From contig CAMVLZ010000002.1 in NCBI GenBank assembly GCA_947168485.1, positions 36,523-100,522 of the forward strand: DNA of 64,000 nucleotides, written 5' to 3'. The stretch is from an uncultured Bacillota bacterium. GTDB taxonomy: Bacteria > Bacillota_I > Bacilli_A > RF39 > UBA660. This document shows positions 1-59,995 of the stretch, piece by piece; within the stretch, counting starts at the first letter, position 1, and each line of letters starts with the position of its first letter. Under the pieces are notes generated by a model, which did no database searches, was not told the origin of the DNA, and saw only the letters and a list, made by a program, of their open reading frames with translations. Made by a program: the position numbers and the translations under genes.

Positions 1-616
1 AAGCTAAACCTATAATTATAGGTAAAACTATAATTATAGTCCATACTCCATTTTGTACAAAGAAGTACCAATCATATTTATAAGATACTTTTCCATTACT
101 CATATGAATTAAAATATTGATTACATAAAATAATGCATAAATAATCATAGGAATTAATCCATAAAAAGTATCCTTAAATTTTAAAGTATCACTCCGTTCA
201 AAGAAATAAAAACTAATTATACTTAAAACAGGTACAATTAAATGAAAAAACAAATTACTATTTTGAATCATCACTAATACTCCACCTTCAGCAATCCATG
301 CTAAATAAAGAAACACTACTAAAAATGTTAAAGTAACACCACAAGTACCCATCAATTTAAATATATAAATACTTTTAGGTATCTTACTAATTTTACCTTT
401 TAATAATAATACTTCATATATTACAAATACTAATGAAACTATACCCATTAATATATTAGAATCAACTGTAAAGAATTTAAACATCTCAATTGATCTAGCT
501 TCTAACACTAAATCATTATCAGTAAACACTATACCACTAAACATCATATAAACACCAAAGCTTACTAATAAGACTATTATAATATTAAGTATTAATGAAA
601 TAATTGTTCTTTTCAT
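1..616 (-). CDS. multi-pass membrane protein, partial (C-terminus lies outside the window)
   Basis: Not in the ORF track because no stop falls inside the window. Hand translation from ATG at 616-614 (preceded by AGGTGG) gives MKRTIISLILNIIIVLLVSFGVYMMFSG... and stays open to position 2. It contains several hydrophobic helices. Confidence 0.6.
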   Translation of the reverse strand, partial: MKRTIISLILNIIIVLLVSFGVYMMFSGIVFTDNDLVLEARSIEMFKFFTVDSNILMGIVSLVFVIYEVLLLKGKISKIPKSIYIFKLMGTCGVTLTFLVVFLYLAWIAEGGVLVMIQNSNLFFHLIVPVLSIISFYFFERSDTLKFKDTFYGLIPMIIYALFYVINILIHMSNGKVSYKYDWYFFVQNGVWTIIIVLPIIIGLA

Positions 617-639
617 AAAACCACCTAAATTTATTATAA

Positions 640-663
640 CAAAAAAAGGAGATAAATCTCCTC
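640..663 (-). terminator. intrinsic terminator after the 354-aa gene
   Basis: Minus strand AGGAGA-UUUA-UCUCCU followed by a U-run, immediately downstream of the stop at 664. Confidence 0.7.
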
Positions 664-1728
664 TTATTTTTTTAAAGTTTTATTTTTCTTTAAAGATTCA
701 TAATCTCTATTTAATCTTTTAGCAAATATCATCTTACAATAATCAGATATTAAATTACCAGTAGATTCATTAGGTCTATCAAAACCATATCTTCTATAAT
801 GTGATTCATCATCAATAATAACATTAGATAAATCAATTTCAGTTAAAATATAATCAACAGTCTCTTTTTCTTCTTCACTAACTATACCTTGTGCAAGAGA
901 CTCTTCTATTAATGTATTAGTATCTACTCTATCATAATTTAATCTATAATATTCACTATTTATAGTAAGCATTAAATTAGATCCTTCAACACTAATTCTA
1001 TTTAATTCTTTTACTGATTTTAAATAATCTAATATATTTTCTTTATCTTCAGAAGATAATTTATCAAAATAATCTTTTTCTTCTTTTAATAAAGTACCCT
1101 GATTTTTGATTGATACTAATCTAGCTAATTCACTTTTACGTTCTTCTATTCTCTCTTTAAGTTTTTCTCTACCAAATAATTTATGTTGTAATTTCTCTAA
1201 ATCCTCATCTAATGATTTAGATAATTCCATTAATTTTTCTTCTAGATCAGTATGTTCTTCTTTCCACTTATTATATCTAACAGTAGAAGAATTATTATTA
1301 ATTTCATCTTCTAATTTTTCTATAGTTAAATGTTTACCATTAAATGTAAGAGGATAATACTCTCTATCTTCATTAATCCATTCATAATCATGATAACCAT
1401 GATATTCATAATTATCAGTAACTTCATAATGACCTTTTTCATGATAAGCATCTTTAGAATCTTCAACGTAATCAAAGCTATTACCTTCTATAAAGAATTT
1501 TGAATCTTCTTCAACTTTAATTCCTAAAGATTCTAATTTTTCTAATTTAGATTCAACTACTTCTCTTTGTTTAACAAATTGTTCTCCATAAACTTGAACT
1601 ATATCTAATAATTCATCTTCTTTTTTTCTAGCAACCATTGGTTTAGCACTAGCAACCTTCTTAAAGTAATTTAATAACTCCTCATTATTAATTATAAAAT
1701 GATACATTTTAATTAATTCTTCTGACAT
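664..1728 (-). CDS. hypothetical acidic coiled-coil protein with a His/Tyr/Asp/Glu-rich patch; no signal peptide or TM
   Basis: 354-aa ORF with AGGAGG 8 nt upstream of the ATG. The patch is AYHEKGHYEVTDNYEYHGYHDYEW (residues ~94-117). I recognise no family. It is monocistronic, between a riboswitch-like leader and a terminator. Confidence 0.75.
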   Translation of the reverse strand: MSEELIKMYHFIINNEELLNYFKKVASAKPMVARKKEDELLDIVQVYGEQFVKQREVVESKLEKLESLGIKVEEDSKFFIEGNSFDYVEDSKDAYHEKGHYEVTDNYEYHGYHDYEWINEDREYYPLTFNGKHLTIEKLEDEINNNSSTVRYNKWKEEHTDLEEKLMELSKSLDEDLEKLQHKLFGREKLKERIEERKSELARLVSIKNQGTLLKEEKDYFDKLSSEDKENILDYLKSVKELNRISVEGSNLMLTINSEYYRLNYDRVDTNTLIEESLAQGIVSEEEKETVDYILTEIDLSNVIIDDESHYRRYGFDRPNESTGNLISDYCKMIFAKRLNRDYESLKKNKTLKK

Positions 1729-1756
1729 TTTTTTGTCCTCCTATATCTCGTCTAAC

Positions 1757-1871
1757 AAAAAAGACGAGAACATTTTTATTTCAATGTGTCTCGTCCGAAT
1801 TACTTCTTATATTCCGGGTAAATAATTACCGATTGACGAAATATAACATTTAAGGACTACTCCCAAATTGA
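1757..1871 (-). promoter_or_regulatory. riboswitch-like leader, copy A (yybP-ykoY / Mn2+-like aptamer plus intrinsic terminator)
   Basis: Minus strand: UCAAUUUGGGAGUAGUCC...UUAUAUUUCGUCAAUCGGUAAUUAUUUACCCGGAAUAUAAGAAGUAAUUCGGACGAGACACAUUGA, then GACGAGA(CA)...UCUCGUC+U6. The helices can be drawn by hand. The strings GGGAGUAG, UCGUCAAUCG, CCGG and CGAGAC occur in the same order as I recall for Mn2+ riboswitches. Confidence 0.6.
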
Positions 1872-1878
1872 TGTACAT

Positions 1879-1907
1879 ATTATACCACAAAATTGCCATT
1901 TTGTCAA
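1879..1907 (-). promoter_or_regulatory. SigA-type promoter of leader copy A
   Basis: Minus strand TTGACA (1907-1902), 17-nt spacer, TGgTATAAT (-10 at 1884-1879). Confidence 0.75.
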
Positions 1908-1915
1908 TTTAAGCA

Positions 1916-2215
1916 TTATTTATCACTTATACTATTTTCTAAAAACTCAGTAATTTTATCAGTTAAAGAACATAATGATCTTTGTATAGAAGATGTATAT
2001 GTAACAACAGCTTCTACATATTCAGATTCAGAATCTAACATAGTATGTCCTTCTAAAATATCTTTTGTAACTAATAATTCATTATCACTACCTAGTTCAT
2101 CACACATTCTGTCTACTAGACCAGCAACTATTTTTAATTGTTCCAAAGATATTTCTTTTTTATCTATTAAAGATTTCTCTTTAAACTTTACCATATATTC
2201 ATCAAAATTTTCCAT
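1916..2215 (-). CDS. hypothetical protein (99 aa), coupled to the upstream 517-aa gene
   Basis: The ORF start lies 1 nt after the upstream stop (TGAtATG). No recognisable motif. Confidence 0.6.
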   Translation of the reverse strand: MENFDEYMVKFKEKSLIDKKEISLEQLKIVAGLVDRMCDELGSDNELLVTKDILEGHTMLDSESEYVEAVVTYTSSIQRSLCSLTDKITEFLENSISDK

Positions 2216-2216
2216 A

Positions 2217-3770
2217 TCAATTCCTCTTCTTAAAAATAGATTGTAATTCTTCTCTTTCAGACTTAGATAAATTATCTTTATCCATTAAAGAAACATATCT
2301 TGACCATTTATTAGTAATCTTTACTAGTGCTTTCTTAGTTTCACTTAAACCATAAACTTGATTCTTAGCAGACTCTTTAGCATCATGAGTCTCTTTTAAA
2401 TTAGTACCTACTCCATCAAGACTATTATTCTTTTCTACTTCCTTCAATTGCTCATCTAAAACATCTTCACCTAAAATATCATGACAAATACCAATTAATC
2501 TTTTATCACGTTCTTCATAATATTCATGTAATTCAGATTCATCTAACTTAGTTATATCAACATCTTTATTATGTTCTTCTAATCTAGTTAAAATAACACG
2601 GGCAAAATCTAACTGTAAAGAAGCTAATTTATGATCTCTAGTATTAATAGATAATTGAGAATCTACTCTTGAATTACGTATTTTATCTTTTAGTTGTTTA
2701 TATAAAGATTCAATATCATCAATAGCCATTAATTTAGTTGCATGAAGAGTTTTTCCATAAAAATCATCATTCTTATAATATGTATCATAATTATCTACTA
2801 TATAACTAGTAACACATTCATTTACAACTCTTTTAAATTGTTCAGGATATACTATATTTTCACCAAATGCACTAACATAATCTACGTTATTTCCAATTTG
2901 TTTTTTAGCATCAACTTGAAGATTAATATCAAGTTTATCATATTTTTCTCTAAATTTATTGTAACCTTTAACAAATTTATCATAAGTATCATCTATACCA
3001 AGTTTATTAAAAATTTTAGGTTGTGGACTATTATAATCTTTAAATAATAAATTTCTAACTAATAAGTTTAATGATAATACAGACATAGAAGCAAAAGTTG
3101 AACCAGTAGATGAAATATCTTTTTCAACTATTGAATTTAGAATTAAAGCATCATTAACAATATCAGCAGTATAATAATCACCAATACTACTCAATTCAGG
3201 ATAAGCTTCTAACAATCGATCTTTTTCATCATCATTAAGTGACTCATTATTTTCAATAGCTTTATCAATACTCTCATCCACAAGATTAACAATTTCTTCT
3301 TCACTTAATTCTTTAAAAGATTCATAATCATATTCTTCATTAGAAGATTCATAATTATTCTTTTGTTCTTCTAAACTCTTAACATTTATCTTATAAAATA
3401 TATATTTAGATAAATTATCAGTTAAAGCTTTTATAGGATCTTTTGATGCATTTTCAGCAATCTCTAATATATCATCTTTATCTAAATTAACAGAATGCTT
3501 ATTTTGTAATTTAACTACTTCATCCGCAATCATTAATTCCATTCTACCAGTAGTTTTATTTTTAGATTTAGATAATTCATTAAGTATTTTATCTCTAAAT
3601 AATCTTGCTGACTCAATATTAGTTCTAGTCATAGTATCTATTCTATCTAAAATACTATTTTTTTGTTTTTCAGATTTAAATTCTATTAATGAAAGATATA
3701 TTTCCATAGCTAACATTATTTTTCTTCTTTCATACTCTAACTCATTTTTTCTTTCATCATAATCATTCAT
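2217..3770 (-). CDS. hypothetical acidic/Lys-rich protein (about 517 aa)
   Basis: Long ORF. The track start (GTG at 3779) lies inside the SD GAGGTGG, so ATG at 3770 is the likelier start. No recognisable catalytic motif. Confidence 0.7.
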   Translation of the reverse strand: MNDYDERKNELEYERRKIMLAMEIYLSLIEFKSEKQKNSILDRIDTMTRTNIESARLFRDKILNELSKSKNKTTGRMELMIADEVVKLQNKHSVNLDKDDILEIAENASKDPIKALTDNLSKYIFYKINVKSLEEQKNNYESSNEEYDYESFKELSEEEIVNLVDESIDKAIENNESLNDDEKDRLLEAYPELSSIGDYYTADIVNDALILNSIVEKDISSTGSTFASMSVLSLNLLVRNLLFKDYNSPQPKIFNKLGIDDTYDKFVKGYNKFREKYDKLDINLQVDAKKQIGNNVDYVSAFGENIVYPEQFKRVVNECVTSYIVDNYDTYYKNDDFYGKTLHATKLMAIDDIESLYKQLKDKIRNSRVDSQLSINTRDHKLASLQLDFARVILTRLEEHNKDVDITKLDESELHEYYEERDKRLIGICHDILGEDVLDEQLKEVEKNNSLDGVGTNLKETHDAKESAKNQVYGLSETKKALVKITNKWSRYVSLMDKDNLSKSEREELQSIFKKRN

Positions 3771-3904
3771 AAAAGCCACCTCTATTATAATTATAACAAT
3801 ATAGACATAATTAGACTATATAAAATAATAAAAATCTCCTTTCTTTACAAGTATTTATAAAATGATGATATACTAATATTAAATAAAAAATATAGGAGAA
3901 TAAT

Positions 3905-4339
3905 ATGAAATGTAATAGATGTGGAAGAGAAATTAATGATAATGAATCATACTGCATTTACTGTGGTAATCATATAAATATGAATTATAAAAAAAAATTT
4001 AATAAAGATAAAAAGAAAGAAAAAATTCAAAAGAAAGAAATAAATACTAATGATGATGAAATAGAAGATACTACTCTATTTGTAGCTGGAAAAGTATTCT
4101 TATTTTTAATACCATTAATTATATTCGGAATAGTAATGATGAAACATTATTTAAAAGAAGCACAACATCCACAAACGGAATTTTTTGGACCATTACCAGA
4201 ACTAATGATGGTAGGTTGTTTTGGTTTTTTAGTTTTGATACTATTACTTATTCCACTAGCAATTATAGTTAATGGAGCATTTACTGGAAAATATAGAAAG
4301 CATAAAAATGAAAAAGAAGAAAATAAAAAGACTGAATAA
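3905..4339 (+). CDS. zinc-ribbon membrane protein
   Basis: N-terminal CxxC-x12-CxxC (MKCNRCGREINDNESYCIYCG), a Lys-rich linker and two hydrophobic helices. SD is AGGAGA. Confidence 0.7.
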   Translation: MKCNRCGREINDNESYCIYCGNHINMNYKKKFNKDKKKEKIQKKEINTNDDEIEDTTLFVAGKVFLFLIPLIIFGIVMMKHYLKEAQHPQTEFFGPLPELMMVGCFGFLVLILLLIPLAIIVNGAFTGKYRKHKNEKEENKKTE

Positions 4340-4353
4340 TATTAGTCTTTTTT
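4327..4353 (+). terminator. intrinsic terminator
   Basis: AAAGACU...AGUCUUU stem overlapping the stop codon, followed by a U-run. Confidence 0.6.
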
Positions 4354-4556
4354 AATTAATCTATTAACTCTGTTTTAGCTAATTGTTTATTAATTTTTAA
4401 TTTTAGATCTTCTTCATCAAAAACCACCCCAAAAATTATTCATATTATACCACATAGTGTATAAATACCCAACAAAAAAGCCATTGTATAAAAAAGATTG
4501 ATTTACAAACGAAAAATATTATGATATTATACTTTTACTTTTTTAGGGGGATAATT

Positions 4557-5156
4557 ATGAAAGATTTATTTAAAAATAATTTTTTAATCGCTATACAACT
4601 TTATAATTCAGAAAATGATTTAAGTAGTCATTCAAATGGTTTTTCAAATTATAAATATAGTTTTTCTGAAGAAGATGGATATAAAGAAGAAAATATTTTT
4701 TCAGTTTTTCCAAATGAAGATATAACTACAGGAGAAGATTTTCTAAAATATATAGAATATTTAAATATAAATAATTCTTTTAAAACTATTTCAATCGCAT
4801 GTATTGGAAAAGAATTATACTGCGCTATATTTGGATTAAATGATCAAGAATATGATGAATACATTAAAAGTAGATCAAATGAAGTTGCTGCTGAAGAAAA
4901 TTTCAAATGGTTATCATATTCAATACCATTTGAAAATAAAATATGTTTTAGAATTCCAAAAGAGATAATATTAGGTTCAATAGTAACTAATGAAAATAAA
5001 GATCTAATATTCATTTATAATAAGAATTATATAGATAATTTAAGTAATGAAGAAAAACAAGAATTTATTAACCAATACAAAGAATTAATATTAAATCAAG
5101 TAGAAGATGAAAATCTATATAATAATTGTGTATCTAAAATTAATAAAAAAATATAA
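4557..5156 (+). CDS. hypothetical protein (199 aa)
   Basis: ORF in the track. ATG at 4557 is preceded by AGGGGG, so the longer track start looks like a spurious extension. Confidence 0.6.
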   Translation: MKDLFKNNFLIAIQLYNSENDLSSHSNGFSNYKYSFSEEDGYKEENIFSVFPNEDITTGEDFLKYIEYLNINNSFKTISIACIGKELYCAIFGLNDQEYDEYIKSRSNEVAAEENFKWLSYSIPFENKICFRIPKEIILGSIVTNENKDLIFIYNKNYIDNLSNEEKQEFINQYKELILNQVEDENLYNNCVSKINKKI

Positions 5157-5174
5157 TGTAAAAATAATTCAAAC

Positions 5175-5208
5175 AAAAAAAGATTATTCATCATAATAAT
5201 CTTTTTTT
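5175..5208. terminator. bidirectional terminator between convergent genes
   Basis: AGAUUAUU-CAUCAU-AAUAAUCU hairpin flanked by an A-run and a T-run. Confidence 0.6.
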
Positions 5209-6020
5209 AATTTAATTAATTTTGGGAAATAATTATTATTTAATTTTTTAACTTTCACTTCATTTTTATTCATAGTTAAATCATTAATTTTTTCTGATAA
5301 GAGATTAACATCAGATTCAAGTTCTTTAAGTTGTTTGTCTTTTCTTTTAGATTCATCAACTTGTAGTTCTAATTCAACTATCTTAGCTAACATATTGAAT
5401 TTCAAACTATCAAAGTCATCTGCTTCCAAATTAATAACATATTTATCTTGATTAATAATATTCTTATATCTATCACAATACTCAATAATCAATTCTTGAA
5501 TTTTTGAATAATACAATTCCTTAGAATTATCATCTAATAAACTAACGTCATTAACTAATTCATCTAAATATTTCATAATAGAATTATTAAATCGCAAAGC
5601 ATTTAATTTATTATCACAAGCACTTTCTATTTCTTCATTTAAAATATAATTAGACTTATACTTTTTAGTTAAATTTTTTAAATATAATTCATGTAAAGTA
5701 GACTCAACCACACTATTTTCTCTAGGGAAAACTATTTCCCAAGCTAAAGATTTTATACTTTCATTATTTGAATTTATATAATAATATTTATCAGTAACAT
5801 TATCATACATAATATATTTCTTATTATCATCATCTATAGGATTTTCTATATCTTTAATAAAATTATAATAAGACTCTGTATAATCAATATAATCATAAAT
5901 GTTAACCCAATAAACTTTTAACTTTTCAATATCAATTTTAATCTTTTTCTTTAATAAATCATCAACACATAAACGTTCAATTAATTCTTGGTCTTCTTTA
6001 TTATATTTTGTAAAACTCAT
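5184..6020 (-). CDS. hypothetical coiled-coil protein (278 aa)
   Basis: ORF in the track. ATG at 6020 is preceded by GAGGGG; the track start TTG at 6041 is probably spurious. Confidence 0.6.
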   Translation of the reverse strand: MSFTKYNKEDQELIERLCVDDLLKKKIKIDIEKLKVYWVNIYDYIDYTESYYNFIKDIENPIDDDNKKYIMYDNVTDKYYYINSNNESIKSLAWEIVFPRENSVVESTLHELYLKNLTKKYKSNYILNEEIESACDNKLNALRFNNSIMKYLDELVNDVSLLDDNSKELYYSKIQELIIEYCDRYKNIINQDKYVINLEADDFDSLKFNMLAKIVELELQVDESKRKDKQLKELESDVNLLSEKINDLTMNKNEVKVKKLNNNYFPKLIKLKKDYYDE

Positions 6021-6202
6021 TCTAATCCCCTCGAATGTCAATTATTATATCATAAAGAAAATACTTTTTATCAAAAAAAGAATATGATTACATATACTTT
6101 TTATTACATCCATGAAAATCTACAACTATAATCTTAAATAATTAAACAAAAAACTATTATCAACCTTCAAATTACTATTATATTCAATAAATCACCTATA
6201 AT

Positions 6203-6231
6203 AAAAACTATGTGTAATACACATAGTTTTT
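6203..6231 (-). terminator. intrinsic terminator after the 457-aa gene
   Basis: ACUAUGUGUA/UACACAUAGU palindromic hairpin with flanking U-runs. Confidence 0.65.
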
Positions 6232-6245
6232 CTATTAACTTCTTA

Positions 6246-7619
6246 TTAATTACCTTTATAAACACATTTAATAGGCTTAGTTACTTTTCCTCCAGGAATA
6301 TAATCACTTAACTTTTTAGTACCATCAGTTATATCCAAAGAAGGTACTAAATCTCCTTTATTAATCATATTATAAAACTTAATTTTATTATCATCCTTTT
6401 TACTATCAACTTTATCACGTGTTAAAGTAATAATATCATAAGCAGTTTGCACTTGTCCATTTGAACTAAATGTACCAAAACCATTTCCTTGAGAATCAAC
6501 CATAACTCCAAAATTTTGAATAATTGAAGTATTATTTTGATTATATTTAACCATATAAAATTGTCCAGCAACATCTGAATTATTCCAAGGAGATCTTCTA
6601 ATTGGAACAATTAAATCAGCAGCAGATCTACCAGTTTTAGTTGTAAATGAATAATAATATATTCCAGGTCCAAGATCATTTATTGATTTACCATTACAAA
6701 TTAATTCATCATTATATGCTAAATTTCTTAAATTATTTGAATATTCCTTCGCAGTAGAAACAAAAGTATTCTTTCTACTGTTTTCATAAGTACGCGAAGT
6801 AGCAGAAATAGAGCCAAGAATTCCAGCAACAATCAAACCAATAAAAGCTAGACTAATAATAACAACAATAATAACTATAGCAGAATTACCATTACCAGCT
6901 GCTCTACATCTATTAATTCTCTCATTTTCATCTGGTGTACTTCTTATAATATTATTAATTTTAATATCAGCTTTAACTAATTTATAATTAGGAAACTCTT
7001 TAGCATAATGAATAGCTAATGCTAATCCTGCAACCATGTTAACTATTGAACATATAGGTCTAAGTGGAGGTAATAGAGTTTGTACGAAACCAGTCGCAAA
7101 ACCAATAAGTAAGGCAATTACAAAATAGCTACCTGCCTCTTTAAACAAACCACTTGCTAGTAACCAAATTGGTCCAAAAAAGAAAGTACCAATTGAAAAA
7201 CCACTTTTAGCTACACTATCATATTTACCATGAAAATATGCATCATAATACTTATCTAAATTCTCATTATTTTGAGTAGGCATAGTAAATGAAGGTTGAG
7301 CACTTACTTGACTTAACATAGTACCACAGTTAGTACAATAATTAACACCAGGTGCTACTGGAGCATGACAATTAGGACAATTAGTAGGATTACTATTTTG
7401 AGTAGGCATCCCACTTCCTCCCATTGATTGAACTCCACTATTCATTGGTTGTGTCATATTGTTCATTGGTTGAACATTATTCATTGGTTGAACATTATTC
7501 ATAGGTTGTGACATATTATTCATTGGTTGTGCTCCATTATTTTGATTATTAAAAATAGCTCCACAATGGATACAATAATTTGTATTACTAATATTCATTT
7601 TACAATTAGGACATTCCAT
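6246..7619 (-). CDS. double zinc-ribbon / QPMNN-repeat / multi-pass membrane protein with a C-terminal pilin-like globular domain
   Basis: Contains CPNCK..CIHCG and CPNCH..CTNCG ribbons, QPMNN repeats and hydrophobic helices. The C-terminal ~190 aa align by eye with the 229-aa pilin at 26853..27542 (SRTYENSRKNTFVSTAKEY vs SRTIENSRRNTFLSTAKTY; SPWNNSDVAGQ vs SSWGNADVSGW; LTRDKV vs LTRADV). Confidence 0.8.
   Translation of the reverse strand: MECPNCKMNISNTNYCIHCGAIFNNQNNGAQPMNNMSQPMNNVQPMNNVQPMNNMTQPMNSGVQSMGGSGMPTQNSNPTNCPNCHAPVAPGVNYCTNCGTMLSQVSAQPSFTMPTQNNENLDKYYDAYFHGKYDSVAKSGFSIGTFFFGPIWLLASGLFKEAGSYFVIALLIGFATGFVQTLLPPLRPICSIVNMVAGLALAIHYAKEFPNYKLVKADIKINNIIRSTPDENERINRCRAAGNGNSAIVIIVVIISLAFIGLIVAGILGSISATSRTYENSRKNTFVSTAKEYSNNLRNLAYNDELICNGKSINDLGPGIYYYSFTTKTGRSAADLIVPIRRSPWNNSDVAGQFYMVKYNQNNTSIIQNFGVMVDSQGNGFGTFSSNGQVQTAYDIITLTRDKVDSKKDDNKIKFYNMINKGDLVPSLDITDGTKKLSDYIPGGKVTKPIKCVYKGN
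7440..7529 (-). repeat. in-frame tandem repeat encoding (M/V)(S/T)QPMNN x5
   Basis: CATTGGTTG(N9-12) units are visible in the DNA and translate to QPMNNMSQPMNNVQPMNNVQPMNNMTQPMN. Confidence 0.85.
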
Positions 7620-7675
7620 ATTATCACCATTTTAATTATATCAAAACAACCACTACAAAAAAATATAAATTAACA

Positions 7676-7705
7676 ACAAAAAAAAGAATATGTAAACCAT
7701 ATTCT
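7676..7705 (-). terminator. intrinsic terminator after tRNA-Arg
   Basis: AGAAUAUG-GUUUA-CAUAUUCU hairpin followed by U8 on the minus strand. Confidence 0.7.
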
Positions 7706-7715
7706 ATTTTCTTAA

Positions 7716-7791
7716 TGGTGTCCCTGAGAGGAGTCGAACCTCCGACCAAAGGTTTAGGAAACCTCTGCTCTATCCACTGAGCTACAGAGAC
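7716..7791 (-). tRNA. tRNA-Arg (anticodon CCU), CCA encoded
   Basis: Hand-folded cloverleaf: GUCUCUG/CAGGGAC acceptor stem, GCUC/GAGC D stem, GAGGU-UUCCUAA-ACCUU anticodon arm, GGAGG-UUCGACU-CCUCU T arm. 76 nt. Confidence 0.9.
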
Positions 7792-21666: not shown

Positions 21667-21694
21667 CAAAAAAAGTAGAAACAAGTTCTACTTT
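21667..21694 (-). terminator. intrinsic terminator after the 488-aa gene
   Basis: AAAGUAGAA-CUUGU-UUCUACUUU followed by a U-run. It overlaps the stop codon. Confidence 0.7.
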
Positions 21695-23154
21695 TTAATC
21701 TTTTTAAGTGTTCTAGTAAAAGCAAGAATTCTATTAGTTTTATCGATTTCTTTATCTTCAATATCTTCTTTAATATCTTCATCATTAGTAATTGAATCAG
21801 CATGAAATATATCATATAATAATTTAGCTTCATTACTATGTTTAGCCATAATATCATTATCTATAAATATTTTTCTAAATACTTCACTAGATAATGGATA
21901 TTTATCAGGATCTTCATAATGTTCTATCTTTCTAACAGTAAATATCGCATCAATTAATTTTCTCTTAGAAATATCAGATACTAATAGTTTTTTTGATTCT
22001 TCTTTAAATCTTTTTACTTTTTCTTCATAATAATAACCAAATTTTAGTACATCAGGTATTCCTAAATCTAAAACATCAACAAATATTTCTGGTAATAGAT
22101 TACTTCCAATTAATTGGTTACTAATTCTATTAAGTTGATCTAATGTTTCTTTATCAAGTTCTTCATAATTACCACTTTCATATATTTCAATAAATTTCTC
22201 AATAAAATATCGCGGATTAGAAGAAAACTCTCTATCAATAAATCTTTTATCTGTACTAAGAGAAGCAACAAGTGATTTACCAAAGTGCTTATATGAAGAT
22301 AAATACTCATTATTATCATTCTTTTTAGAATCAAAAGTTGGATCAAAAACATAATAACCATCTAAATTATATTTATCATCTTTAATATATACAATACTAT
22401 TAGCATGACCAGAAGTACCATTTTTACCCTTAAGATAATGTTCTTTACATTCTATACCTAATCCTTCAAGTACAGCATTAAATACTCTAGCATAACCTAA
22501 ACATACTATATTATCACCTAATAAAACAGAAGATAAATCTCTAGAGTCAAATGCAGAATATTCATCATCAACTTCATTGTATACTCTATCACGAACTAAA
22601 TCATAAGCAAAAGCAACTTTTTCTAATGGACTAAGATCATACTTATTAATATGAGAAACTATTTCATCAATAATTAAAACAGATTTTTCATATGTATCTA
22701 AATCAACATAATTATCATTACCTTTAACTTGTAACTGTAAATTATCTACATCACCAAATAAACTAATAAGTTTATTATAATCATCTTTAGAAACAGATAA
22801 TTTATCTGTAACAATAACTTCATCAAAACTATTATGTTTTAAAAATTTACTACTATTTTCATCCAAATTAACAAAACAATTACACTCTTCTAATAAATTA
22901 GCCTCTCCAGATACACATTCTTCCAATAATTTAAGTGTTTTAGGAGCATCACCAAAGAATGCAGGATCATCCATAAAAGCATATACATCATCTTTATAAG
23001 AAGAAAAAGCTCTCTCTAAAACAGGTCTAATCATATCCATAGTTAAAGTCTTTTCACTATAACTTGAGTTCATATCAAGAACTACCACATCTCCATAATA
23101 AGAAACTTCAATGTCTTCTAAATCATCTTTGAAAACAAAATAAATATTTTTCAT
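21688..23154 (-). CDS. cytoplasmic transglutaminase-like (Cys-His-Asp core) protein
   Basis: 488-aa ORF with no signal peptide or TM. Core: NIVCLGYARVFNAVLEGLGI ... GHANSIVY ... YYVFDPTFD. It is monocistronic behind leader copy B. Confidence 0.7.
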   Translation of the reverse strand: MKNIYFVFKDDLEDIEVSYYGDVVVLDMNSSYSEKTLTMDMIRPVLERAFSSYKDDVYAFMDDPAFFGDAPKTLKLLEECVSGEANLLEECNCFVNLDENSSKFLKHNSFDEVIVTDKLSVSKDDYNKLISLFGDVDNLQLQVKGNDNYVDLDTYEKSVLIIDEIVSHINKYDLSPLEKVAFAYDLVRDRVYNEVDDEYSAFDSRDLSSVLLGDNIVCLGYARVFNAVLEGLGIECKEHYLKGKNGTSGHANSIVYIKDDKYNLDGYYVFDPTFDSKKNDNNEYLSSYKHFGKSLVASLSTDKRFIDREFSSNPRYFIEKFIEIYESGNYEELDKETLDQLNRISNQLIGSNLLPEIFVDVLDLGIPDVLKFGYYYEEKVKRFKEESKKLLVSDISKRKLIDAIFTVRKIEHYEDPDKYPLSSEVFRKIFIDNDIMAKHSNEAKLLYDIFHADSITNDEDIKEDIEDKEIDKTNRILAFTRTLKKIKK

Positions 23155-23179
23155 AAAAATTCTCCTTTAAGGTCTTATC

Positions 23180-23294
23180 AAAAAAGACGAGACCATTTTT
23201 ATTTCAATGTGTCTCGTCCGAATTACTTCTTATATTCCGGGTAAATAAATACCGATTGACGAAATATAACATTTAAGGACTACTCCCAAATTGA
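23180..23294 (-). promoter_or_regulatory. riboswitch-like leader, copy B (yybP-ykoY / Mn2+-like aptamer plus terminator)
   Basis: About 135 nt nearly identical to copy A (3 substitutions) from the -10 region to the U-tract. The terminator is GACGAGAC...GUCUCGUC+U6. Confidence 0.6.
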
Positions 23295-23301
23295 TGTGCA
23301 T

Positions 23302-23330
23302 ATTATACCACAAAATAAGGAAAATGTCAA
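23302..23330 (-). promoter_or_regulatory. SigA-type promoter of leader copy B
   Basis: TTGACA (23330-23325), 17 nt, TGgTATAAT (-10 at 23307-23302). Confidence 0.75.
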
Positions 23331-23336
23331 TTAAAA

Positions 23337-58006: not shown

Positions 58007-58035
58007 AAAAGATGGCTTATTTTAAGCCATCTTTT
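58007..58035. terminator. bidirectional terminator
   Basis: AAAAGATGGCTTA-TTT-TAAGCCATCTTTT. It overlaps the proS stop. Confidence 0.75.
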
Positions 58036-59714
58036 ACGTATGTAACAATCTTTTTAACTACATCTTTTGAAGATACTTCTAAAGTATTATCATTTCTTCT
58101 TTCTTTCCATTCAACTATACCATCTTCTGCTTTCTTACCTACAGTTATTCTTAATGGTATACCTATTAAATCCATATCTTTAAATTTAACTCCAGCTCTT
58201 TCATCTCTATTATCATAGATAACTTCAATACCTTTCTTAGTTAAATCATTATATATTTTTTCAGCTAATTTAGTTTGAGTTTTATCTTTCATATTAATTT
58301 GAACTAAACTAACTTGATATGGAGCTATATTCATAGGTAGAATCATACCATTCTTATCATTATTTTGTTCAATAATAGAAGCTAATATTCTACCTGGTCC
58401 AATACCATAAGAACCCATAATTGGATATTGTTCTTGGTTATTTTCATCTAAATAAGTAATACCTAAATCTCTACAATAATGATCTCCTAATTTAAATAAA
58501 TTACCTATTTCAATACCATGTTTAAAGTAAATATTACCTCCACACTTAGGACAAATATCTCCTTCAACAACATTAGCAATATCTCCAACTATATCATAAT
58601 TAATATCTTTAACATTTGCATTAATATAATGATAATCAGTCTTATTAGCACCACAAACAAAATTCTTCATATGAAGTACTTCTTCATCAACAACAACTGT
58701 ACAACCAGTTAATCCAACAGGACCAGTATATCCAGGTGCTGCATTAGATTCAGCTATTTGTTCATCATTAGCAAAACCAATCTCTTTACCACCCATTAAT
58801 TTTAATGCTTTTTCTTCATTTAAAGAACGATCTCCTCTAACAAAGAATATAGTTAATTTACCATCTACATGCATTAATAATGCTTTAACAGTATGCTTAA
58901 TATCAACATTTAAAAAATCAATAACATCTTCTATAGTGTGAGCATCAGGAGTATGAACCATTTCCATTTCTTTCTCTTCTTCTTCAACATCTAATATTTT
59001 ATAAGAAGCAACTTCCATATTAGAAGCATAATCACATTTATCACATAAAACTAATATATCTTCACCAATATCAGTAATTGCTTGATACTCTTCTGATAAA
59101 GTACCACCCATCGCACCAACAGAAGCTCTAACTATTTTATAATTAATATCCATACGATCAAATACATTACAATATGCATCATACATCTTCTTATAAGATT
59201 CATTTTGCATCTCTTCATCTCTATCAAAAGTATATGCATCTTTCATAATAAATTCTTTAACTCTAATTAATGCATATCTAGGACGTATTTCATCTCTAAA
59301 TTTATCAGCTTGTTGATATAGATTAAATGGTAAATCTTTATAACTTTTTAAATACATAGAAGCTGCTATAGCAAATAATTCTTCATGAGTAGGACCTAAT
59401 ACCATATTAGTATTCTTTCTATCATGTAATTTAAACATACTATCTCCAAAAGCTTCTACTCTACCACATTTTTCATAATACTCTCTAGGTATTAATGAAG
59501 GCATTAAAACTTCCATTGCTCCTGCAGCATCCATTTCTTCTTTAATAATCTTTTTAATTTTATCTAAAACTCTTAATCCTAATGGCAAATACATATAAAT
59601 ACCTGCCCCAACCTTTTTTATCATTCCACTACGTACTAATAAATTACCACTAGTACTATCTTCATCTTTAGCATCTTCACGTAATGTGAAAAAATAATTT
59701 TTATCTAATTTCAT
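58017..59714 (-). CDS. proS: prolyl-tRNA synthetase (bacterial type with an insertion domain)
   Basis: Class II motifs (FRDEIRPRYALIRVKEF, GSYGIGPGR). 565 aa, with a T-box carrying a CCU specifier upstream. Confidence 0.93.
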   Translation of the reverse strand: MKLDKNYFFTLREDAKDEDSTSGNLLVRSGMIKKVGAGIYMYLPLGLRVLDKIKKIIKEEMDAAGAMEVLMPSLIPREYYEKCGRVEAFGDSMFKLHDRKNTNMVLGPTHEELFAIAASMYLKSYKDLPFNLYQQADKFRDEIRPRYALIRVKEFIMKDAYTFDRDEEMQNESYKKMYDAYCNVFDRMDINYKIVRASVGAMGGTLSEEYQAITDIGEDILVLCDKCDYASNMEVASYKILDVEEEEKEMEMVHTPDAHTIEDVIDFLNVDIKHTVKALLMHVDGKLTIFFVRGDRSLNEEKALKLMGGKEIGFANDEQIAESNAAPGYTGPVGLTGCTVVVDEEVLHMKNFVCGANKTDYHYINANVKDINYDIVGDIANVVEGDICPKCGGNIYFKHGIEIGNLFKLGDHYCRDLGITYLDENNQEQYPIMGSYGIGPGRILASIIEQNNDKNGMILPMNIAPYQVSLVQINMKDKTQTKLAEKIYNDLTKKGIEVIYDNRDERAGVKFKDMDLIGIPLRITVGKKAEDGIVEWKERRNDNTLEVSSKDVVKKIVTYVKDGLK

Positions 59715-59794: not shown

Positions 59795-59990
59795 AAAAAA
59801 AAAATGGTACAAGGAGCGCAATGCACGGTACCATCCTATTTTTCTCTCTTATTGATAACGGATTATCATCCGAAAATACTTTCATATTTTACTCATGGGT
59901 AGGAATATAATACTATTATTACTTAGTCTCACCAAACCTAAGTTCTCTTAAAATAATTAATTATTATACTGTGTCCCAGTCATCGCATTT
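59795..59990 (-). promoter_or_regulatory. T-box leader (Pro, CCU specifier) with an intrinsic terminator
   Basis: Minus strand: GCGAUGA (GA/K-turn), AGAGA, GGUGAGA, then ...UUCCUACCC (CCU followed by a purine). The T-box is AAUAGGAUGGUACCGUG, and the terminator is AUGGUAC...GUACCAU+U10. Confidence 0.85.
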
Positions 59991-59995
59991 CAAAT

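Follow-up and report, generated by a model that had tools for sequence, protein, structure and literature searches.

The stretch of DNA analyzed here (termed the window) consists of 64,000 nucleotides from an uncultured Bacillota bacterium that inhabits ruminant guts. On its minus strand is a gene, ORF P0001 (664..1728), which its sequence and translation indicate to be real and which encodes a soluble, acidic protein of 354 residues belonging to an unannotated family. The ATG start codon (1728-1726) lies 8 nt downstream of a Shine-Dalgarno sequence, AGGAGG (1737..1742), and further upstream is a sigma-70 promoter (1879..1907), in which the elements TTGACA and TATAAT are separated by 17 nt; this promoter matches the consensus at 12 of 12 positions and has a TG before its -10 element (i.e., an extended -10). 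An intrinsic terminator (644..665), recognized from the sequence and likewise on the minus strand, closes the unit. In other words, P0001 is a single-gene transcription unit, which consists of a consensus promoter, a compact riboswitch of the yybP-ykoY class, the ORF and a terminator.

Two ruminant-gut metatranscriptome assemblies contain contigs that are perfectly identical to the window over positions 1671-1870 and 1581-1860. These contigs start at 1870 and 1860, that is, just downstream of the sigma-70 promoter and approximately at the predicted start site; they cross the leader terminator and enter the P0001 ORF; and no coverage from the RNA runs was found over 1917-2211, upstream of the promoter. 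Being strandless, of low depth and possibly due to carried-over DNA, they constitute weak evidence both for expression in vivo and for read-through of the P0001 leader.

The protein has a pI of 4.95, a net charge (K+R-D-E) of -24 and a GRAVY of -0.92. Its highest 19-residue Kyte-Doolittle mean is merely 0.32, and it therefore lacks a transmembrane helix; nor does its N-terminus (MSEELIKMYH) have the shape of a signal peptide. On both points the initial annotation, which had been made from the DNA letters, is borne out, as is its description of P0001 as a cytoplasmic non-transporter, with which both this hydropathy maximum and the lack of any Pfam or NCBIfam match agree. More specifically, P0001 has neither the multi-pass membrane profile nor a Pfam domain of the Mn2+ exporter families (MntP, TerC, P-type ATPase and CaCA). 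The strong acidity that was also remarked upon is real, but is not a distinguishing trait: ORFs of at least 150 residues within the window have a median pI of 5.4. An argument of the form 'acidic, therefore metal-binding' was rejected for P0001, inasmuch as the proteins of the window are acidic in general.

No match to P0001, or to the neighboring ORFs of the island in which it lies, was found in Pfam, NCBIfam, PHROGs or PADLOC; none was found among PDB sequences, which were searched both with the single sequence and with a profile; and Pfam searches of all 17 family members returned scattered coiled-coil noise only. A Foldseek search with the predicted structure likewise returned nothing significant from the PDB or BFVD (best E of 0.17 and 0.02, respectively; TM ≤ 0.24), only generic coiled-coil arms, so that the earlier failure to recognize a family holds for the sequence libraries and for an AlphaFold model alike. 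In particular, no described metal-binding or metal-storage family or fold is significantly matched in Pfam, NCBIfam, the PDB sequences or Foldseek (PDB and BFVD). A search for related loci in a library of genome contigs, with P0001 as the query, likewise found no relative. One sequence 81% identical to P0001, two full-length relatives at 34-35% identity and about 15 further distant representatives (280-440 residues) were found among 1.8 billion representatives, and the family profile matches 3 of 401 genomes from the organism's own taxonomic family; genomes of the same genus lack the protein. As judged from these searches, the P0001 family is small, rare and unannotated.

The AlphaFold2 model of P0001 (m586c631931b7), which was built from a 17-sequence alignment, is a confident one (pLDDT 89.4, pTM 0.75). 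It consists of N-terminal helices (residues 3-67), a beta domain (residues 72-129; 1342..1515, minus strand; pLDDT 83-93 there) inserted between helical segments, and long helical hairpins (residues 136-353). (Modeled alone, the beta domain has a pLDDT of 43, and this model was not used for a domain-level fold search.) The prior suggestion of a coiled coil is thus partly upheld: the model has long helices (29-67, 187-223, 226-265 and 321-353), but these pack as a compact bundle, to which the beta domain is added. Within the limits of the PDB and BFVD the predicted fold appears to be undescribed. Across the family alignment only G131 and Y235 are invariant, along with the helical motifs FNG and LTxEQK..I..YL, and no His, Cys or Asp site is conserved family-wide.

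Between the promoter and the ORF is a compact aptamer of the yybP-ykoY type with a three-way junction (1779..1873, minus strand), which is recognized by covariation, by folding and by a covariance model, R1 (73.3 bits, E 8e-16). Its L1 comprises GGGAGUAG (1857-1864), which is invariant in 21 leaders, and the 3' strand GAGAC (1788-1792); its L3, CGUCA (1834-1838), includes an invariant adenine at 1834, which we take to be A41 of the L. lactis numbering; and folding gives a P4 mini-hairpin of 3 bp (1797-1806). In place of P2 there is a UUAAA linker (the 7-nt UUAAAUG), which in a third copy of the leader within this genome reads UGAAAUA. The genome's three copies are located at 1729-1915 and 23155-23335 of the window and, in a diverged form, on another contig (G000:C15:13366-13550; L005 1486-1684). 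Searching the genomes of the taxonomic family with the leader motif pattern yielded 22 sites in 13 of 301 genomes, as compared with 5 for a reversed-pattern control, and all of these sites except one within a coding sequence (L025) have a consensus promoter on one side and a terminator on the other.

Across 21 leaders the motifs GGGAGTAG, CGTCA and AGAC (in DNA letters) are invariant; at the RNA level, L1 (GGGAGUAG/AGAC) and L3 (CGUCA) agree with the RF00080 consensus GGGGAGUAGC...CGUCAAC. These invariant motifs correspond to hallmarks of the yybP-ykoY class, namely an L1 with GGGGAGUAG on its 5' side and AGA on its 3' side and an L3 of GUCAA with the metal-contacting adenine, whereas the four-way junction formed by P2 and P4 hairpins is not seen in the window leader, in which P2 is absent and P4 is a 3-bp hairpin. 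The Rfam 15 model, RF00080, finds no match to the P0001 leader, either at its gathering threshold (45 bits) or at E ≤ 10, and regardless of whether it is applied to 64 kb, 9 kb or 251 nt; nor, at the same cutoffs, does it match the relatives of the leader or anything genome-wide. It also misses four-way-junction forms from this bacterial family, of which one is upstream of a P-type ATPase gene (L015) and another is L026.

The helices themselves are supported by compensatory change. In a plain MAFFT alignment of the 21 leaders, made without reference to the structure, 86.7% of the cells within P1.1, P1.2, P3.1 and P3.2 pair, versus 66.3% after shuffling, and registers slid by 1-3 columns pair at 26-50%. 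Two-sided changes occur in 88 cells, as against 28.4 when shuffled, and in 18 of 22 pairs; and the covariation score is 0.566, versus 0.208 for shuffled alignments (reached in 0 of 500) and 0.05-0.21 for the slid controls. Moreover R1, which was made from these family leaders alone, recovers the AT-rich leaders that RF00080 misses and, in addition, 11 of 11 independent RF00080 loci that belong to other families within the class; it places these loci where RF00080 does, with E of 1e-10 to 8e-3; these loci score 23-34 bits, all under the RF00080 gathering score. Some relatives in the alignment possess a P2 hairpin and some precede a cation P-type ATPase or a Na/Ca exchanger; thus the leaders grade without a break from the classical architecture into that of the window, which has no P2. 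The yybP-ykoY element of the initial annotation is, in consequence of the covariation, the invariant L1 and L3 and the R1 results, right in kind, but it is a compact variant that RF00080 misses. We read the P0001 leader as a three-way-junction yybP-ykoY ON switch, with Mn2+ or Ca2+ as its presumptive ligand. More generally, a whole set of compact Mn-type switches rich in AT escapes the public Rfam model, and the corresponding regulons are left unannotated.

Downstream of the aptamer, and overlapping it, is an intrinsic terminator (1757..1796, minus strand) with a 13-bp stem followed by U6 (hairpin -16.1 kcal/mol, z -3.6), with its 5' arm supplied by the 3' strand of P1.2, L1 and P1.1. When the 95-nt aptamer is folded alone, P1.1, L1, P1.2, P3.1, L3 and P3.2 form (-20.9 kcal/mol); when the next 24 nt, which supply the 3' arm, are added, the minimum free energy (MFE) fold exchanges P1.1 and P1.2 for the 13-bp terminator and U6. 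Because of this shared strand the terminator is taken to be the expression platform of a ligand-ON switch; the Mn2+ switches of the ON type in Firmicutes are built in the same way. Binding of a divalent ion (Mn2+, and possibly also Ca2+) would stabilize P1 and the docking of L1 with L3; and since the terminator draws its 5' arm from the 3' strand of P1, this stabilization would block the terminator and allow P0001 to be transcribed. Covariation and folding together thus show the structure of the leader, and the ligand is assigned putatively. Past the terminator (1729-1770, minus strand), GACGAGAUAUAGGAGGAC has two possible pairing partners, the terminator's 3' arm and the aptamer's 5' strand (GUCCU...UAUAUUUCGUC), and in the MFE fold of the full leader (1729-1880) the region of the AGGAGG Shine-Dalgarno is paired to the latter. 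Either pairing of GACGAGAUAUAGGAGGAC would cover the Shine-Dalgarno sequence, which suggests a possible second, translational layer of control.

Mn switches of the yybP-ykoY type normally control membrane metal pumps; MntP, for example, is a cargo of the Mn riboswitch and a membrane protein that moves metal. This genome is wired differently. Its second promoter-aptamer-terminator cassette (aptamer at 23202..23296, minus strand), which is 97% identical to the first, drives a different soluble orphan (21688-23154; 488 residues, with a weak match to the transglutaminase core), and the third copy precedes a gene for a 217-residue acidic protein, so that the genome's three switches lead to three unrelated soluble orphans. 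Neither TerC nor MntP was found in the assembly, which is 91.5% complete. Genes for a P-type cation ATPase, a Na/Ca exchanger (CaCA) and NfeD are present (G000 C39, C23 and C4), and upstream of these the leader is absent and the sequence is ordinary. Inasmuch as the pump genes are without a leader and all three switches precede soluble orphans, the switch is, in this genome, wired only to non-transporters. The window also contains a T-box leader (59809-59992, minus strand; 95.6 bits) upstream of a 565-residue ORF (58017-59714).

P0001 itself sits in a 7.7-kb block (1-7680 of the window) that shares nothing with same-genus genomes and that contains only domain-less acidic ORFs and zinc-ribbon membrane proteins; synteny with these genomes resumes, at 79% similarity, at tRNA-Arg(CCU) (7716-7791) and RNase J. 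A prophage or a defense island was considered for this block and rejected, there being no PHROG or PADLOC match and no integrase.

The leader recurs within the P0001 family. A leader of this type is found upstream of P0001, P0004, P0005, P0006, a distant homologue in another genome of the taxonomic family (G109) and P0018. The P0004 leader was read directly, its contig starting inside the leader; that of P0005 is cut by the contig end, yet has an R1 score of 62.5 bits; those of P0006 and of the G109 homologue score 70.3 and 69.6 bits; and that of P0018 is a diverged copy with a P2 hairpin (28.6 bits, E 3e-5). P0001, P0004, P0005 and P0006 form one clade, and their four-of-four association hence counts as a single evolutionary event; overall, however, the linked members (five clear cases and one weaker case) occupy three separate clades of the family tree, between which the link recurs at 23-35% protein identity. 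The leader was not found upstream of at least seven members having adequate sequence (P0007, P0010, P0011, P0013, P0014, P0016 and a homologue in G032), and for P0008 and P0009 the upstream sequence extends only ~270-290 nt. Given three clade-level associations, and given that a leader copy of any kind occurs in merely 15 of 301 genomes of the taxonomic family (~5%; 26 copies in all), chance is hard to credit. The P0001 family is, as these sequences indicate, a recurrent cargo of a yybP-ykoY-type switch, which is the strongest result of this analysis.

Several observations on individual leaders may be added. Upstream of P0018 (L090 1100-1500) the diverged riboswitch is followed by two terminator-like hairpins, a 29-residue ORF and then the gene, which may be a tandem or decayed arrangement. 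The metagenome contigs carrying P0004 and P0005 (L048, L049 and L050) are independent assemblies that break inside the leader, as is expected if the cassette is repeated in their genomes as well. A P-type ATPase gene adjoins P0007, and a very weak R1 match immediately upstream of this ATPase gene (L053 4437-4492; 8.6 bits, E 5) is probably due to chance. G109 contains eight leader copies (L019, L028, L031, L033-L035, L083 and L084), mostly before orphans; one of its cargos (L034, 257 residues) matches Pfam Tad4, a Thoeris inhibitor, at 25.9 bits, the cut-off being 25.

The initial annotation had also drawn attention to a cluster of His, Tyr and acidic residues at about 1354-1449, and exactly there the peptide AYHEKGHYEVTDNYEYHGYHDYEWINEDREYY is encoded, corresponding to residues 94-125 within the beta domain. 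Its combined His and Tyr content (12 of 32) was reached in 3 of 20000 shuffles and is beyond chance, whereas its His content alone (4 of 32) was reached in 3242 of 20000 and is not; that is, the enrichment is driven by Tyr rather than by His. Part of this patch, approximately residues 105-120 (DNYEYHGYHDYEWINE; 1369..1416, minus strand), is a subfamily-specific Tyr/His/acidic insertion of about 16 residues, which in the family alignment is present only in P0001, P0004, P0005 and P0006 and is a gap in all distant homologues. (P0013 has an insertion at the same place, but an unrelated one.) The riboswitch-linked family members outside this subfamily lack the insertion. Invariant among the four insertion bearers are G99, H100, Y109, Y112, D114, E116, W117 and N119-E120-D121-R122. 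Of the four histidines of the patch, only H100 is conserved within the subfamily; H110 is replaced by E or C, H96 by R, E or C, and H113 either by Q or not at all. As aligned, therefore, the patch is a conserved, structured element of one subfamily that has some ligand-type residues and is not a family-wide metal site; its conserved Tyr, Trp and Gly residues could have a purely structural role.

Because members of the family lie behind the riboswitch in three clades, we take the family to belong to the cell's response to high cytoplasmic Mn2+ rather than to its metal pumps. Within the subfamily the insertion (H100, D114, E116 and N119-E120-D121) would be the best candidate for a low-affinity divalent-cation site, such as would fit either a cytoplasmic buffer or a metal-dependent module. 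Taken as a whole, the best explanation of the locus--a real transcription unit, a Mn-type ON switch, a soluble family that functions in the high-Mn2+ response, and a candidate site within the insertion--is one for which we consider the balance to be about even. Its parts differ in strength: the metal-buffering or metal-sensing role proposed in the initial annotation is putative, with buffering a plausible form of it, and binding of metal by the insertion is a tentative proposal that we are inclined to doubt, a scaffold or protective role being about as likely. Bolder still is the notion that the family constitutes a new cytoplasmic class for coping with Mn (or Ca) overload, in which the subfamily insertion binds the ion and the protein serves as a riboswitch-induced metal sink; this we regard as unlikely, though, if true, it would describe gut bacteria with small genomes that lack MntP and TerC and whose pumps have been taken out of riboswitch control.

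The alternative that survives best, and that is possible though on the doubtful side, retains the switch and dispenses with the metal chemistry: the protein would be structural or a scaffold, perhaps protecting the membrane or envelope in the manner of PspA or of SPFH/NfeD proteins, and would be made at high Mn2+, the Tyr-rich insertion being a protein-protein or structural element. A role at the membrane is suggested by the many distant family members whose N-terminus is a brief hydrophobic run leading into basic residues (MNLLMLALIKK...), the hydrophobic run being absent from P0001 itself, and by Band_7/SPFH and NfeD proteins being other cargos of the leader in this bacterial family; yet none of the 17 members has a Pfam match to PspA_IM30, and structures of PspA, Vipp1 and ESCRT-III are absent among the best 50 Foldseek matches in the PDB. 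Sequence conservation is similarly divided, in that the family has no conserved metal ligands, its conserved features being the helical motifs noted above, and the patch owes its enrichment to Tyr rather than His, whereas acidic and His residues (H100, D114, E116, E120 and D121) are nonetheless conserved within the subfamily.

Another alternative takes the leader to be a portable promoter-sensor cassette, copies of which have come to lie ahead of unrelated accessory genes in variable islands; the function of the cargo would then bear no relation to the ligand, which would be a mere cue of the gut environment. The two copies within the window are 97% identical over 141 nt even though neither the flanking sequences nor the cargos are related; this genome has three copies and G109 eight, mostly before orphans; P0001 lies within a species-specific block ending at tRNA-Arg; and the metagenome contigs end within the leader, in the way that assemblies end at repeats. 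Since only about 5% of genomes carry any leader copy, however, random copying is unlikely to have linked the leader to one and the same family in three clades, at 23-35% identity, and we consider this alternative quite improbable. That the leader is a look-alike attenuator under the control of a protein or of some other ligand, as its lack of a match to RF00080 and its missing P2 (and hence the absence of the four-way junction of the solved structures) might be taken to imply, is very improbable, given that R1 and the RF00080 loci detect each other reciprocally, that L1 and L3 are invariant, that the series grades from four-way forms before a P-type ATPase to P2-less forms, and that a three-way subtype has already been published (PMC6649816).

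The preferred reading, namely that a Mn-type ON switch controls a soluble family acting in the high-Mn2+ response, may be set beside systems that are already known. Regarding the protein, the only fold neighbors found for P0001, none of them a significant match, are the antiparallel coiled-coil arms of SMC, JetC and MukB and the F-BAR domains, which have in common with it long helical hairpins; these proteins lack its beta domain, however, and P0001 lacks an ATPase head. Regarding the RNA, the four-way RF00080 switches (L. lactis yoaB; B. subtilis yybP and ykoY/meeY; E. coli mntP and alx) share with the P0001 leader the core GGGGAGUAG...CGUCAAC...AGA and a P1 strand that doubles as a terminator arm; unlike them, the P0001 leader has no P2 hairpin, is AT-rich, is only ~95 nt long and falls below every RF00080 threshold.

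A closer counterpart is the S. pneumoniae mgtA riboswitch, which responds to Mn2+ and also binds Ca2+, and for which a three-way-junction subtype of yybP-ykoY with a UNAAA linker is documented, as is the invariant AGA of yybP-ykoY RNAs (PMC6649816). This riboswitch and the P0001 leader have in common the L1 and L3 motifs, the three-way junction, a downstream terminator and ON logic (PMC6649816), and both have a U-N-AAA linker in place of a lost helix. The helix lost is not the same, however: in mgtA the linker replaces P4, whereas here it stands in for P2 (as UUAAA in the first copy and, in that of C15, as UGAAA), a short P4 hairpin being retained. The cargos differ as well, that of mgtA being a Mn2+/Ca2+ P-type ATPase and that of the present leader a soluble orphan.

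It is in the cargo that the P0001 unit departs from precedent. The cited cargos of Mn riboswitches (the P-type ATPase MgtA, TerC/MeeY, MneA and YybP) are membrane proteins that move or deliver metal. B. subtilis YybP (PMC13598126) resembles P0001 in that it, too, is controlled by a Mn riboswitch, is not a pump and has no known function; its authors describe it as a membrane protein, whereas P0001 has no hydrophobic segment. Recurrence of a soluble family behind a Mn switch would suggest that the manganese response has a cytoplasmic arm, and would provide the uncharacterized P0001 family with a first functional handle open to testing. In short, the novelty lies not in the RNA, which is a variant within an established class, but in its cargo: soluble proteins of an undescribed family, which are met repeatedly behind switches of this class.
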